Source: a virus
Strand: one strand, 5' to 3'
Virus record (IMG/VR): IMGVR_UViG_3300022554_000002
Span: 130,474-194,473 of that record
Length of the DNA: 64,000 nt
The first letter of the stretch is position 1. Every line of letters starts with the position of its first letter. This document shows, one piece after another, positions 3,379-18,287 of this stretch. The position numbers and the translations under genes are program-made. The notes under the pieces were generated by a model, which did not search any database, was not told where the DNA came from, and worked only from the letters and a program-made list of their open reading frames with translations.

Positions 3379-5904
3379 TTATGCGTCCTTTCCTCTTGGG
3401 TCAAACCATCCATACGTCCACATGCAAGCAACCGATTGTTTCGTATTTGCTCGCATTCTCAATTGTGCAGATGTATTTGTTCTAAAAATATTTCCTGCTG
3501 GTCCCTGCGTTACGCCAGTTCCTCCCTCCGTCACTTGCAGCGAATTTTGATTTCCGTTAGCAGGCGCGACATCGGTAACAAGTGGTGATGACGTATACGT
3601 TGATATTGTGTTTAATGCTTTATATCCGTATGTTGTTACTTGCGCTAGAACTTCAACACCTGTGGGGACACTTATTGTGTACAACGTTGCACTGGTGCCT
3701 AATGTTGCCGATGCATTTACGTCGTATACAGGCGTCTTCCACAGGAACAAATCACCATACTGTGTATAGGCGATAATATTTGCACTTCCATTCGTCAATA
3801 CTGCACCAATTCTTCGTTTGAAATCATAGTTTGCTGGCATTGTTGGTGCTGTTGCAGATGTACTGAATAACGCATCAACTACACCCGTATCACTACGCTT
3901 AATTAGCCACACATGGTACCATGTAGCATTGCCAACTGAGCCTGTATCAAGACCACCATTGCCCGAACCTACAGCCCATGACGCATCAATTCTCTTTGTT
4001 ATTGCTGCTGACAAAACTAAATCAGCAGCATTTGTAGAATCCCTACAGGCACCAGCGGCAATATCAATATTATGGTCTGCATCTGTTCCATTATTACTGG
4101 TGATTAATCCGTCAATATATCCACGTGGCAAGCCTGTAGCAGTTGATCCAGTGGTCATAGCCCTACGCATGGTTTCAATACCAGATGCATAATTCTTAGT
4201 ATATGCAATATCGGCGTGGTCATAGGTAATTTCGTGACTATGAACTGCACCATATTGTTCAGCGAAACCTTGCCATGATTGTACGCCGTCTGCTGGATTC
4301 TTATAAACGTAATATGATTGTCCATTGCCAACATTAATGCTGAACCACTGAGTGCCGGAATCTAGTGTATTTGCCGCTGGACGATCTGCATGTAATCCAT
4401 AGAGGATTTTAGAACCTACCCACATTCTACGCATGGTTTCAATACCAGATGCATAGGTAGTTAGTGCTGTAGTATCGCCACCAGTAACCATTGCACGTCT
4501 TAAAGTTTCGATACCTGAAGCATATTCTGTTAACTCTTGTAAATCAACAATAACACCAGATAGTGTATTAGTATTTGATGTTAATTCATTTTGTACAAGA
4601 ATTAATTGACCATTAATACCAGATGCATAGGTTGTTACTGCTGTGGTATCACCACCAGTAACCATTTGCCTACGCATAGATTCAATACCAGAGGCATATG
4701 CTTCTATTGCTGTGGTGTCACCACCAGTAGAGGAACCAGAAACACCATTTAAAACACCACGGTAGCTAACTACGATGCCTTTTGTGTCACTAATGGCAAT
4801 CATTACAGGTTTTGAAATAGTACCGCTTGTAATTGGTTCAGTTGGTGTTAACTCACCTAAGTTATCAGCAGACAGGAAGTACACAATACCGGGAATTAAA
4901 CCGCTTTGATTTTCAATTTCACCCTCAAATACAGCAGTAAATTGATTACCTGATGTAGATTCAATGATAGCAACTGATTCAGCAGTAACAATATTGTCTG
5001 CTTTAGCTTTTGCCCACTGTTCACCAGTGGTTCTATAAATTGCATTTAATGCAGAAAAATCGTGTGTTTGAATATAAGTTTGACGAATGCTTGATCCGGT
5101 AGCCGTAGACGTACCACCAGCAGGTCTTGCACCTATTCCTGAAGCATATTCTGTTAACTCTCTTAAATCAGTAATAATGCCTGATGTTGTATTAGTATTT
5201 GATGTTAATTCATTTTGTACAAGAATTAATTGATTATTGATACCAGATGCATAAGATTCTAACACAGGATTGGAAGAAACCATGACCCGACGCATAGACT
5301 CAATACCGGATGCGTAGGATTCAATTTCTCGTGAATCAATAATTAATCCCGATAATGTATTACTAGCAGCAGTTTGATTTATTTGAATTACATTTAGTAG
5401 CGTTTTTGTTCCAGAAGCATAACCAGTAATATAGTAAATATTTGATTGGTTAACAATTGCTAACGCACCAATACCAGATATATATGGTTCTAGTGCTGGA
5501 TTTGAACCACCACCAGACAAAATCATTGAATCTACATAATGTTTATTAGTTAAATCGGCAGGAATGGTTGGCCAACGATATTGTAACGCTCTTTCAAAGG
5601 ATTTAATACCAGATAAATTCTGGTTTCCTTGAGTTCTAATATATGTAATAATGTCGGCTAAGTGGGCAGATGTTATAACACCAGAAGCAATATTTTCTGG
5701 AACTGTAATAATCTCGCCTAAGTCGGTTCCAGAGGTTAATTTATCTCCGGTAATAGTCCCATTGGCTATTAATTCGTTAGTGATTGCTTCTAAGGAGATG
5801 TGTCTTGTTTGAATATAACCATCTTGTATGTCAGGATTTGGGTAAGCACCTTGTAAGGCACCACCCGCAGCATCACCATATCTAATTGGGTCAGTTAAAG
5901 CCAA
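3379..5904 (-). CDS. Tail fibre protein, 841 aa, TTG start
   Basis: Gly/Ser/Thr-rich; PTIPADLTNKHYVD motif; about ten YASG(I) repeats; C-terminal GYIDGL...IDIAAGACRD...TWYHVWLI...KRRIG module common in phage fibres. Confidence 0.75.
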   Translation of the reverse strand: MALTDPIRYGDAAGGALQGAYPNPDIQDGYIQTRHISLEAITNELIANGTITGDKLTSGTDLGEIITVPENIASGVITSAHLADIITYIRTQGNQNLSGIKSFERALQYRWPTIPADLTNKHYVDSMILSGGGSNPALEPYISGIGALAIVNQSNIYYITGYASGTKTLLNVIQINQTAASNTLSGLIIDSREIESYASGIESMRRVMVSSNPVLESYASGINNQLILVQNELTSNTNTTSGIITDLRELTEYASGIGARPAGGTSTATGSSIRQTYIQTHDFSALNAIYRTTGEQWAKAKADNIVTAESVAIIESTSGNQFTAVFEGEIENQSGLIPGIVYFLSADNLGELTPTEPITSGTISKPVMIAISDTKGIVVSYRGVLNGVSGSSTGGDTTAIEAYASGIESMRRQMVTGGDTTAVTTYASGINGQLILVQNELTSNTNTLSGVIVDLQELTEYASGIETLRRAMVTGGDTTALTTYASGIETMRRMWVGSKILYGLHADRPAANTLDSGTQWFSINVGNGQSYYVYKNPADGVQSWQGFAEQYGAVHSHEITYDHADIAYTKNYASGIETMRRAMTTGSTATGLPRGYIDGLITSNNGTDADHNIDIAAGACRDSTNAADLVLSAAITKRIDASWAVGSGNGGLDTGSVGNATWYHVWLIKRSDTGVVDALFSTSATAPTMPANYDFKRRIGAVLTNGSANIIAYTQYGDLFLWKTPVYDVNASATLGTSATLYTISVPTGVEVLAQVTTYGYKALNTISTYTSSPLVTDVAPANGNQNSLQVTEGGTGVTQGPAGNIFRTNTSAQLRMRANTKQSVACMWTYGWFDPRGKDA
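4514..5253. repeat. Internal duplication in the tail fibre gene (4514-4629 and 5138-5253)
   Basis: Two similar blocks of about 116 bp, 624 bp apart (in frame), sharing cctgaagcatattctgttaactct and tgtattagtatttgatgttaattcattttgtacaagaattaattga. Confidence 0.9.
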
Positions 5905-5909
5905 GGTTC

Positions 5910-5996
5910 ATTCCCTGCTGGTTCGACCTAACAGGAATACCGCCCATCAGAGACGGTACTTTCCATAGTAATATAATCGTTAATTAGGCAGGGAAT
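5910..5996 (-). promoter_or_regulatory. Structured leader that pairs with the tail fibre ribosome-binding site
   Basis: Nested inverted repeats ATTCCCTG 5910-5917 / CAGGGAAT 5989-5996, CCTAA/TTAGG and TACCG/CGGTA. The minus-strand AGGGA SD upstream of TTG 5904 lies in the outer stem. Confidence 0.6.
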
Positions 5997-14987: not shown

Positions 14988-15771
14988 TGACCTTCTACAA
15001 GATTAAAGTCATCAAAAATTAATGGTTCTTCAGCTTGCATTACTTTCAACATAGCAGTTGCAACTAAAAGAATCTCTTCTTCAGCAGCAGCACAACAACG
15101 AAGATTAAAAATATGTCTAAGAGCACGTAGATTACCCGTCCAAACCCCTCCCGTTGCTACCCCCATTGGGATAATACGACGCATCATACTTGTAATTTGT
15201 TTCTTATATTTAAATTTTGACTCAGGAGAAAGTTCATCCTTCCAAATATCAACCAATTTGGTGTAATAATCTTCAACAAGAGTAAATACATTATTGACAA
15301 TCTCTCTTGATTTTTGTTTTTTTGCAGCTAATAGACAATTATCTCCATCTTCCTCTTGAAGACTGGTTGGCATCCAAAAAGGAATGTCTTCATACCGAAT
15401 ATAACGCATTGAACCTTAGAAATGGCCATACCAGCACGATGTCGGTTCATTTCTCCTGTGAAAACTCTGCTAACATTTTCAAGAGCAAAGGTATAATTAA
15501 CATGTTCCATGACAGAACCATGTCCACTTTTGAGAATATTGTCAATATATTCCTTTGCATCATCACGAACTTTTGTAACATTGGGATTAAGCAGTGGTAC
15601 AAAAGCTTTATAACACCTTTTACCAGCAAGCATCATAAGTTGCTCACCCGGTGTTCTATTAGGATCAAGTTTGTAGTCTTCTGCTTCAAGACTATCAAGC
15701 CAGTCTCTTGCATTATTATTGCAAATTTGTGTTTTAGCTAACAAAAAAACAGTTGGCTGAACATTGTGCAT
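14960..15771 (-). pseudogene. thyX: Flavin-dependent thymidylate synthase split by a 1-nt frameshift
   Basis: 15328-15771 gives GHGSVMEH...SRVFTGEMNRHRAGMAIS; 14960-15409 gives MRYIRYEDIPFW...TGNLRALRHIFNLRC. Adding one base between 15418 and 15417 restores RHRAGMAIS-x-GSMRY. Confidence 0.85.
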
Positions 15772-15970
15772 TACCTTCTCCTATTTACTATTCCTTAAAA
15801 AACGTAAGCTAAAAATTTATCTTTAATTTCAAATATTACAGAATTACCTGTAAATAATGCTCCTTGAGTAATTATTGCTTCTTTAGATATTTTTAACTTA
15901 TTTAACATAATATCTAGATTATTTTGAGCTTTTTCTTTAGAAACACCCACAGCAATTTTACAAAGCATAT

Positions 15971-16180
15971 TTATTCCTCATATGGAATACTGAACGACCA
16001 CTCATCTTTCAACAAATCAGAATCACGTAAATATCCAGAAAAACTATTTGTACTGTCACGAATAGGAACTATTCTTTCTTCATTAATCCAATTTATCATT
16101 CCTATAAAATAAATTTTTTCATGCTTGGTATTATAAATACCTTGAAAATTACATAACCAGTTAATTTCTTCTTTGGTCAT
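15971..16180 (-). CDS. Hypothetical protein with own promoter
   Basis: SD GGAG and a consensus TTGACA/TATAAT promoter just upstream. Confidence 0.55.
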   Translation of the reverse strand: MTKEEINWLCNFQGIYNTKHEKIYFIGMINWINEERIVPIRDSTNSFSGYLRDSDLLKDEWSFSIPYEE

Positions 16181-16262
16181 ACTTTCTCCTGACTATATTA
16201 TACAATGAGAGATTGAAATGTCAAGGAAAAACCTGAAGAGTGAAATATATATTCACTAACTC

Positions 16263-17541
16263 AGTATGACGGTCGTGATTTACTTCTTACTCTCTTCATT
16301 GGTCTTGGTTTTATTACCCAAATTCCTCTGAGAGTCTTTGTTTATCCTCTGCCGTGAATCCTCACGGTGGAGTAAGGCAAAAGCTTTTATGTTTTTCGCT
16401 GCATTAATATCTCGATCATGGAAAGTGTTACATTTAGCACATGTCCATTCTCTGTGTTGTAACTTTAGGTTTTTATTTATTTCTCCACAAACTGAACATA
16501 TTTTGCTACTTGGTTTAAATTGTCCTATAAATAAGAGATTTCTACCATACCATTCTGATTTATAAGTTAGCTGGCGTTTAAACTCATACCAACTAACATT
16601 ACTTATAGCTTTGGCTAATTTATGATTTTTTAACATATCTGTAATATTTAAATCTTCTAAGCAAATTGTTTGGTTCTCACGAATTAGCTTAGTAGACAAT
16701 TTTTGCAAAAAATCATATTTTTGATTCGTAATTTTTTCATAAATTTTTGCTACAATGAGTTTTTGTTTTTCTCTGTTTTTGCTTCCTTTCTGTTTTTTAT
16801 TGAACATTCGTTGATGATGTTTTAGTCTTTTTTCTTGTTTATTAAAATATTTAGGATTTGTAATTTTATCACCATTTGAAGTTACACAAATATCTTTAAG
16901 TCCCAAATCTATACCAATTGTTGTATTGCTTACAATGGGTGGTTTAGTGGGAATTGGTTCACCAGTATCAACTAGTATACAAGCAAAGTATTTATTTGTT
17001 TTTGTTTTTACAATGGTTGTAGTTTTAATCTTACCTGTAAATTGTCTATGAAAAACACATTTAATATTTGGAATTTTCATAATGTGTAATAAACTATTAT
17101 TAAAATCTACTTTTGTATATTGAGGGCATTGAAATGTTTGTTTTTTATTTTTAGATTTAAATACTGGAAATTTTGCTTTGTTATTATTAAAATTTGTGAA
17201 AGCATTATCAAGATTCATAAGAGCCATCATTACTGCTTGACTATTTACTACTTTTAACCAGGGTAATTCCTGTTTTAATTTTGGTAGTTGTTTTTTAATT
17301 TCATAACAAGTGATTTTTTTGTTTTCTGCTTGGGTTTTAAGTCGTTGTTCTAGCCCCCAATTATAAATATATCTACAACACCCAAAATGCTGCCCTAAAA
17401 ATTTCTTTTGTTTTTCTGTAGGATATATTTTATATTTATAAGTTTTTAACATTTAGAGAATCTTTATCCCCTTTCTAAGTATATAATCTAGTTTTTTATA
17501 AAAAATAGAGGGAAATGGTTAATTTAAATAGTATGACGGTC
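16263..17541 (-). mobile_element. Non-autonomous tnpB element (no tnpA) bounded by 12-bp direct repeats
   Basis: AGTATGACGGTC at 16263-16274 and 17530-17541. Right-end-like TCAC on the minus strand at 16278-16275, just after the stop codon. Confidence 0.65.
16280..17452 (-). CDS. tnpB: TnpB RNA-guided endonuclease (IS200/IS605 OrfB)
   Basis: N-terminal YKYKIYPT helix-turn-helix, RuvC-I GIDLG, RuvC-II ICLEDL, Zn finger CSVCG...CAKC, RuvC-III DRDINAAKNI. All three catalytic acidic residues are present. Confidence 0.95.
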   Translation of the reverse strand: MLKTYKYKIYPTEKQKKFLGQHFGCCRYIYNWGLEQRLKTQAENKKITCYEIKKQLPKLKQELPWLKVVNSQAVMMALMNLDNAFTNFNNNKAKFPVFKSKNKKQTFQCPQYTKVDFNNSLLHIMKIPNIKCVFHRQFTGKIKTTTIVKTKTNKYFACILVDTGEPIPTKPPIVSNTTIGIDLGLKDICVTSNGDKITNPKYFNKQEKRLKHHQRMFNKKQKGSKNREKQKLIVAKIYEKITNQKYDFLQKLSTKLIRENQTICLEDLNITDMLKNHKLAKAISNVSWYEFKRQLTYKSEWYGRNLLFIGQFKPSSKICSVCGEINKNLKLQHREWTCAKCNTFHDRDINAAKNIKAFALLHREDSRQRINKDSQRNLGNKTKTNEESKK

Positions 17542-17563
17542 CCGTATTTAAATTAACCATTTC
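17512..17563. repeat. Perfect 19-bp inverted repeat with 14-nt loop
   Basis: GAAATGGTTAATTTAAATA (17512-17530) / TATTTAAATTAACCATTTC (17545-17563). Confidence 0.95.
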
Positions 17564-18287
17564 TATTTACAAAGTCTACCGTCTTTGTAAATATTTTTTC
17601 CTCTATAAACTCTTTACTCTCCAAGTACTTATCGAAATTTTCAAACAAGATGTTCTTCTGTCCTTCAGTGTACCCATATTCTATAATCGTACATGGACAT
17701 TTTGAATTCCAAAAGATTGTTCGTGGAATTCTATAACACGTAGCCATGTGCATAAAGAAACTGTCAAGCCCAATATAATGTTTACAGGAGGATAAAATCT
17801 TTATTGCCAACTCTAAATTTTGAATTTCATCCAAATCTATAAATGTTATATTGTTATCGTCTAACTTTTTTATTAGCTTTTTCCATAATTCTTCAGGAAG
17901 CTGTTTTAGATTTTTAAATGTTGAGCATTTATTACTAATAGCAATAATATTACTAGTTTGCACCACAGGTATTTGTGGTGGCATAGTAGTATAATTTCTA
18001 GAAACTTTTACTCCTGTAATAAATTGAACTTTGTCCAATATATAATCTGCGTGGCTTGTTGATGCATGAATTCCTGCTTTAAATGGATACAGAACTTTGA
18101 TTTCACCAAAGGAACGTCCAAATTTAAAATTGTACCCAAGCAATGTTAATAGAAAGTTATATTTTTTATAATCAATAAACACTTCTATGTCAGAATTAGC
18201 AAGATTTGTAAATGCATTATGACTAAGTATTATATCTCCTATGGCACCGGGATGTAAATGCCTAAGTGTTACAACTCTCATATCCAT
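17553..18287 (-). CDS. Glycosyltransferase family 9-like (heptosyltransferase-like)
   Basis: HPGAIGDIIL at the N-terminus and CKHYIGLDSFFMHMA near the C-terminus. Confidence 0.7.
   Translation of the reverse strand: MDMRVVTLRHLHPGAIGDIILSHNAFTNLANSDIEVFIDYKKYNFLLTLLGYNFKFGRSFGEIKVLYPFKAGIHASTSHADYILDKVQFITGVKVSRNYTTMPPQIPVVQTSNIIAISNKCSTFKNLKQLPEELWKKLIKKLDDNNITFIDLDEIQNLELAIKILSSCKHYIGLDSFFMHMATCYRIPRTIFWNSKCPCTIIEYGYTEGQKNILFENFDKYLESKEFIEEKIFTKTVDFVNRNG

Follow-up and report, generated by a model that had tools for sequence, protein, structure and literature searches.

A transposase-less phage TnpB element flanked by a 12-bp target duplication is probably a homing element inserted at the loop of a conserved hairpin

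A tnpB gene in a phage genome was found to occupy a site that is vacant in related phages, and filled and vacant alleles coexist at this site among the relatives. The predicted guide of the element spells the vacant site of these relatives, because the downstream copy of a 12-nt repeat lies directly against the right end and serves as the guide template. The element is probably a transposase-less (IS1341-type) homing element made of TnpB and its omegaRNA that landed in the apical loop of a hairpin and whose duplicated target leaves that hairpin intact; this reading is based on sequence comparison. The DNA analyzed, called the window below, comprises the final 64 kb of an IMG/VR virus record that is 194,473 bp long and has direct terminal repeats. 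An independent assembly of the same phage from an ENA sample is 100% identical across 6 kb around the tnpB locus.

The TAA stop codon of tnpB (16282-16280, minus strand) is followed by ATCAC (16279-16275) and then by GACCGTCATACT (16274-16263). A second copy of GACCGTCATACT is located at 17541-17530 on the minus strand, and its end is 78 nt ahead of the tnpB ATG. The original prediction had reported that the same 12-mer follows the right end and recurs upstream of tnpB, and the exact positions of both copies are confirmed here. These are the only two copies in the 64-kb window with up to one mismatch allowed, where 0.12 would be expected from shuffles, and the repeat search of the window gave a spacing of 1267 between them. 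The two copies are identical for exactly 12 nt from the right-end junction and are unalike past that point. Extending the comparison beyond 12 nt gave no significant similarity, either between the two copies (p 0.04-0.22) or between the upstream copy and the vacant alleles. The features of the element and its immediate flanks are as follows.

16280-17452, minus strand: tnpB, 390 aa, with RuvC D-E-D residues and zinc finger intact, Pfam PF12323, PF01385 and PF07282
16275-16400, minus strand: predicted omegaRNA scaffold from a seven-sequence alignment, overlapping the 3' end of tnpB and ending with the ATCAC at 16279-16275; the 5' limit is approximate
16259-16274, minus strand: predicted 16-nt guide template, the first bases past the conserved right end
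16263-16274, minus strand: downstream 12-mer copy, adjoining the right end of the element and forming the first 12 nt of the predicted guide template
17453-17488, minus strand: conserved left end defined by the similarity of three elements, beginning with GATTATA, after which a covarying hairpin (17478-17472 / 17460-17453) surrounds the ribosome-binding site
17489-17529, minus strand: 41-nt segment between the upstream 12-mer and the element, containing the hairpin 3' arm, a CTCT...T-run and finally AAAAAACTA; no conservation is seen between the three elements
17530-17541, minus strand: upstream 12-mer copy, predicted to be the apical loop of hairpin P2 and the ancestral target sequence; its position after the end of the upstream gene equals that of the single copy in the vacant contigs L041, L042 and L083

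The TnpB protein contains the HTH_OrfB_IS605, OrfB_IS605 and Cas12f1-like_TNB domains and matches ISDra2 TnpB with an E-value of 5e-60. Its full-length alignment to PDB 9yyg/8bf8 keeps D191, E278 and D361 as well as both CxxC pairs. The intact RuvC residues noticed earlier were therefore recovered as a D-E-D triad, and a CxxC..CxxC zinc finger is present as well. The reported lack of tnpA also held when the search was extended to the whole 194-kb genome, in which neither a Y1 transposase tnpA (PF01797) nor a second tnpB was found. The closest TnpB relatives are metagenomic, L039 with 74% and L040 with 67% amino acid identity. The best match in species-representative genomes is 55% identical, and these genomes offered no host or multi-copy source for delimiting the ends or the TAM. 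No matches were obtained by scanning viral and metagenome contigs for the right-end pattern, or by megablast against GenBank phages.

The right end was delimited by comparing three elements: the DNA of the window, L039 and L040 is alike through ATCAC and unrelated past it. This agrees with the earlier placement of the right end at ATCAC with the guide starting directly after it. An alignment of the last 200 nt of seven sequences contains two stem systems with 22 pairs, 10 of which show compensatory changes; in the window, the stems lie at about 16372-16289. A scan of 15500-18200 against Rfam at E<=1 matched no family. Judged from the conservation limit at ATCAC and from this covarying 22-pair alignment, the omegaRNA scaffold is conserved and the predicted guide template starts at 16274.

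At the left end, the three elements are similar from GATTATA (17488) onwards (p<=0.001 versus shuffles), and the hairpin arms around the ribosome-binding site carry compensatory changes among the elements. The 41 nt upstream of this point are no more alike among the three elements than shuffled sequence (p 0.46-0.85). The element proper is thus 17488-16275, since the similarity starts at 17488 and the 41 nt are not conserved, and the upstream 12-mer lies outside it, 41 nt beyond the conserved left end. The alternative that the 41 nt belong to the left end was considered and rejected, as they are not conserved among the window, L039 and L040. Their AAAAAACTA becomes CTAG when the first base of the element is included. 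A possible template of these 41 nt was sought in the genome and the fetched loci, where nothing matched except the inverted copy of the segment itself and low-complexity sequence. At the left junction of L040 (2962-2973), 12 nt spanning TAG and the element start GATTATACA recur at about 4333-4344, which is 150 nt downstream of the right end and about 50 nt ahead of the next gene. Either the duplication of a promoter-like motif or a left-end remnant may explain this recurrence.

The more distant elements L051, L056 and L059 have a terminal GC-rich stem-loop just before a TTCAT end, which is absent from the window, L039 and L040. The left-end hairpin of L051, L056 and L059 is likewise missing from these three. 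The missing hairpins are probably those recognized by TnpA. A TnpA encoded by the host could act in trans; transposition by this route is unlikely because the genome has no Y1 transposase and a single tnpB, and because the subclade lacks the terminal GC-rich stem-loop. By eye, the window element has no terminal inverted repeats beyond AT-rich noise.

The site without the element was recognized through the gene upstream of tnpB. Its 244-aa protein has no relatives in IMG/VR and two homologues in a 5.8-billion-protein collection, encoded on contigs L041 and L042. Both contigs are syntenic with the window and lack tnpB. In each of them, the stop codon of the upstream gene is directly followed by a single GACCGTCATACC, and the sequence is then collinear with the right flank of the window up to the TTGACA/TATAAT promoter. 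A third vacant allele, L083, was found through a pattern scan of JGI metagenomes; it also has no tnpB and a single 12-mer. Because all three vacant contigs carry a single copy, the pair of 12-mers in the window is a target duplication. Relative to all three vacant alleles, the insertion is 1255 bp long (17529-16275) and is bracketed by this 12-bp duplication. The predicted guide matches L041, L042 and L083 at 14 of its 16 positions, the first 11 being exact. Besides a regulatory role, the original prediction had suggested that an unusual insertion or repair event could have left the repeat, and the single-copy vacant alleles point in that direction.

No vacant allele of the exact lineage of the window and no "canonical" filled allele were found. 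The window and L042 share 90% identity up to 17602, the alignment is lost in the hairpin region, and the identity on the right side is 78%. No clear co-conversion tract is visible in the identity to the relatives, none of which represents a donor lineage, and this may weigh against homing.

The upstream copy is part of a secondary structure at the end of the upstream gene, where two adjacent hairpins are predicted.

17512-17563, minus strand: hairpin P2, with a 19-bp perfect stem and a 14-nt loop; its 5' arm spans the stop codon of the gene at 17553-18287
17564-17593, minus strand: hairpin P1, with an 11-bp stem and the loop ACGGTAGA, within the upstream gene at its 3' end; conserved across the four lineages, all with compensatory changes

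The arms of P2 (17512-17530 / 17545-17563) are exact complements and enclose the upstream 12-mer in the loop; the 19-nt 3' arm consists of the last T of the 12-mer and the first 18 nt of the 41-nt segment. No perfect palindrome in the 194-kb genome is longer than P2, whose fold has a dG of -20.7 and a z of -5.1. Hairpins of this geometry are also predicted for the vacant alleles (dG -20 to -23.5, z -3.7 to -4.7), where the 12-mer again occupies the apical loop. In the window P2 is followed by a CTCT...T-run, as is the hairpin of the vacant alleles. RNAalifold recovered both hairpins, P1 and P2, from the four lineages with 8 compensatory pairs. Since the vacant alleles fold alike and P2 is recovered in four lineages, the alignments and folds indicate that P2 is the orthologue of a conserved host hairpin, and that the upstream 12-mer is its ancestral loop and not a newly acquired self-target. 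When the 5' arm of the window is joined to the downstream copy and its flank, no folding is seen (z -0.5). In these models, the hairpin is kept whole by the upstream copy only.

The possibility that the 3' arm is purely a fold-back repair copy was weakened by the finding that the hairpin is ancestral, yet the stem is perfect here and imperfect elsewhere. The region of P1 and P2 (17512-17593 on the minus strand of the window and 3290-3370 in L041) shows covarying stems with invariant loops in four lineages at the end of the 244-aa gene. The GACGGT of the P1 loop is complementary over 6 nt to the ACCGTC of the P2 loop, and a kissing-loop contact would be possible. The whole genome (G000) contains 24 perfect palindromes with arms of at least 11 nt and loops of up to 20 nt, compared with 2-6 in block shuffles, and several of them resemble intrinsic terminators.

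On the other side of the element, the right flank contains a candidate terminator and a promoter.

16225-16264, minus strand: predicted local hairpin and T-run starting in the guide template, with a 5+6 bp stem followed by GTTTTT in the MFE fold
16197-16224, minus strand: perfect sigma-70-type promoter of the gene at 15971-16180, with TTGACA, 16 nt and TATAAT (12/12 match), kept in the vacant alleles

The right-flank hairpin begins at guide position 11, and it is not seen in this form in the vacant alleles. Together with its T-run it may terminate the transcript of tnpB and the omegaRNA just ahead of the downstream promoter.

A second filled and vacant pair is provided by L039, the closest relative of the window element, whose target site lies vacant in the window itself.

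5911-5937, minus strand: vacant target of the sister element L039 (TnpB 74% identical), with the target at 5930-5911 and the 5' flank TTCCTGT at 5937-5931

The flanks of L039 map to 136498-136411 and 136403-136001 of G000, that is, to the genome of this phage. The guide of L039 matches the vacant site in the window at 15 of 16 positions, and its right junction against this site is exact at ATCAC. On its left side, 7 nt of the vacant allele are gone and there are 42 unrelated nt. L039 and the vacant-allele contig L041 share one sequencing run, which does not imply origin from a single genome. Two related phage lineages thus seem to possess sister TnpB elements, the guide of each pointing to the vacant site in the other lineage. 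An extra segment of L039 matches a gene start in L041 at 20 of 21 positions, which may be chance. The vacant site of L039 in the window is just upstream of a tail-fibre gene. Upstream of the tail-fibre promoter region, L039 also has a further insertion of 159 nt (58-216) in comparison with this genome.

The junctions of other TnpB insertions were surveyed. Among 35 TnpB loci, a repeat of at least 11 nt that starts exactly at the right-end boundary was found only in the window and in L012. As background, 4% of mismatched flank pairs share a repeat of at least 11 nt at any position. About 25 independent TnpB insertions were examined, of which 2 show such a repeat, and this rarity counts against reading the repeat as a footprint of homing. 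L012 belongs to a separate group of ~100-kb phages, whose TnpB is 47% identical and whose element is found at several loci; whole records served as vacant references for this group. Comparison of the filled alleles L011-L013 and L035 with the vacant alleles L063-L066 revealed that the first target bases are duplicated over 11 nt. The start of this duplication coincides with the right end, and its overlap with the left-end consensus is a 3-nt microhomology. This copy adjoins the left end, and there is neither a hairpin nor a spare module. Other insertions show losses: in L029, 61 nt of the left flank are lost, and in L003 the losses are 134 nt of flank plus about 36 nt at the left end of the element. 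Right junctions are exact in all filled and vacant pairs compared, whereas left junctions are irregular, with offsets of +12, +11, -7, -61 and -134 relative to the target start.

The TnpB family of L004, L006, L012 and L029 (IMG/VR 3300045988 phages) has 16-bp terminal inverted repeats, GGTAACTATATACCAG at the left end and its reverse complement at the right end, which are unusual for IS200/IS605-type elements. The left ends are about 80 nt ahead of the ATG and the right ends about 130 nt past the tblastn match, and L006 has two tandem right ends. The same left junction followed by different sequences right after the right end was observed among L006, L008, L009 and L027, between L003 and L005, and between L029 and L078. 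These alleles look like deletions of ~70-120 nt that start exactly from the right end, each of which would give the element a new guide.

Homing into vacant sites is the reading preferred here. The complex of TnpB and omegaRNA would cut vacant sites in co-infecting relatives, and recombinational copying would follow as a form of non-restorative homing, so that the element spreads or rival phages are excluded. "Transposon non-restorative homing" into co-infecting phages or plasmids has been proposed in a review (PMC13565253), and restorative homing by TnpB was described by Meers et al. (PMC10055086). For ISDra2 TnpB, the distance of the cut from the TAM is 15 bp on the non-target strand and 20-21 bp on the target strand (PMC8612924). 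The TAM-side end would accordingly keep the first ~15 target bases, and sealing of this end without long homology would leave a duplication of up to ~15 nt. Variable resection of the same end would produce deletions; both outcomes would fit the series of left offsets and the exact right junctions. The duplication would have arisen with the entry of the element or soon after, either as a repair product in which the TAM-side end retains the first ~12 target nt, or through unequal exchange with a vacant allele. It would persist because the host hairpin stays intact.

The TAM is a difficulty for this reading. The vacant sites are preceded by CTTAG and CCTGT, and the flanks of the three left ends are CTAG, CTAT and GTAG, which is suggestive only. 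The upstream copy is preceded by TACGG, which differs both from the CTTAG of the vacant target and from the CTAG before the left end. If the upstream copy is a retained cut end, the TAM must therefore be loose or have changed since. In addition, if the 3' arm and the T-run are ancestral in full, the module that was duplicated measures about 50-60 nt, which exceeds the 15-21 nt left by a TnpB cut. The upstream copy has no demonstrated role for TnpB.

The strongest competitor of homing with concurrent duplication is a duplication older than the element, and it is possible, if somewhat unlikely. The loop, the 3' arm and the T-run of the hairpin would have been present in tandem, and the element would have entered the redundant distal copy, either with a host TnpA acting in trans or through homing. 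The insertion would have been tolerated as the proximal hairpin remained whole, and the repeat would then be uninformative on the mechanism of insertion. The CTAG before the left end resembles the TTAG of the vacant target and fits a canonical order of TAM, element and target, and the upstream hairpin shares the geometry of the vacant alleles down to the CTCT...T-run after it. Against a pre-existing duplication, all three vacant alleles have a single module, and the identity of the two copies spans exactly 12 nt from the right-end junction, with dissimilar sequences past it. Moreover, the 11-nt repeat of the unrelated phage TnpB also begins precisely at the right-end boundary and that locus has no spare module, and entry by TnpA is opposed by the absence of tnpA and of the TnpA-type end hairpins.

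A stronger claim than homing itself is that a seed-length target copy on the left side is a recurrent and useful feature of transposase-less TnpB homing elements. A donor with target bases 1-12 on its left would be homologous to both ends of the break, leaving no heterologous tail to remove, and the same donor would rebuild the host structure split by the insertion. In a bolder variant, the loop copy would be recognized as ssDNA without a TAM and would tune the element. The claim that the copy is useful in this manner is decidedly unlikely.

RNA-guided autorepression, the first option named in the original prediction, is not supported. The complex of TnpB and omegaRNA would bind the upstream 12-nt partial match without cutting and repress its own transcription; alternatively, the loop would be bound as ssDNA, so that a TAM is not needed. 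A 12-nt seed match does exist between the upstream operon and tnpB, and TnpB-derived RNA-guided repressors are known. The mechanism meant is that of TldR, nuclease-dead TnpB-derived repressors whose omegaRNA-like guides bind near promoters. TldR proteins have lost the RuvC catalytic residues, and their guides fully match an operator beside a TAM. In contrast, RuvC is intact in the window TnpB, only 12 guide positions match, and the flank TACGG corresponds to neither candidate TAM context. ISDra2 TnpB cleaves matching ssDNA independently of the TAM (PMC8612924), and the upstream site is in a hairpin loop, which would suit the ssDNA variant. However, this site is the likely ancestral loop and is present in phages without tnpB, so that an explanation related to TnpB is not needed, and the comparable 11-nt copy in the other phage group adjoins the left end without any hairpin. 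Autorepression is thus the least supported reading and very improbable.

A target-site duplication made by a DDE-type transposase in trans, through a staggered cut and fill-in, is scarcely credible: a direct repeat of 11-12 bp flanks the insertion and a second phage TnpB family has 16-bp terminal inverted repeats, but the window element has no such inverted repeats, 41 non-element bases separate the repeat from its left end, and other insertions of the inverted-repeat family show deletions and no duplications.

In its three-domain protein, RuvC triad and zinc finger, the element resembles the IS1341-type TnpB of IS200/IS605 elements (ISDra2; PDB 8bf8/8exa). It is also similar to them in that the omegaRNA overlaps the 3' end of the gene and the guide is read just past a conserved right end finishing in TCAC. 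Unlike IS200/IS605 elements, it resides in a genome without tnpA and belongs to a subclade that lost the terminal GC-rich stem-loop and the left-end hairpin. It is further distinguished by the 12-bp direct repeat flanking the insertion, whereas insertion without duplication of the target is part of the family definition (PMC13565253). The IS200/IS605 features lacking in the window element are thus the TnpA-related end hairpins and the absence of a target duplication.

The locus shares with TnpB homing (PMC10055086; PMC13565253) a guide that spells the vacant site, the coexistence of filled and vacant alleles, and two lineages that are mutually targeted. It differs from the homing described so far in that the natural layout was read from sequence and that the left side keeps the first 12 target nt with the host hairpin intact. 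A filled allele retaining the first 12 nt of its target and an intact hairpin was not found described in the literature search. Free-standing phage homing endonucleases (SegF, SegB and Mob of T-even phages; intronless homing) are comparable as selfish nuclease genes between conserved phage genes, with presence or absence among relatives and a conserved target sequence. In contrast to SegF, SegB and Mob, recognition would be by a guide RNA and not by a protein, and self would be distinguished from non-self by the insertion, which parts the TAM from the target.

Cas12 descends from TnpB, and the ways in which transposase-less copies of TnpB are maintained and propagated are a subject of current work. 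The locus described here is a natural and directly testable case of such persistence. Phage-borne TnpB and TnpB homing are already known ideas; what is added is a natural pair of filled and vacant alleles with apparently reciprocal guides, a conserved hairpin loop as the likely target, and a retained target copy that keeps the predicted hairpin. If the duplication is a repair footprint, it would be sequence-level evidence that RNA-guided cuts drive the spread of these elements in phages. If the duplication is selected, it would show how such elements avoid harming their carrier.
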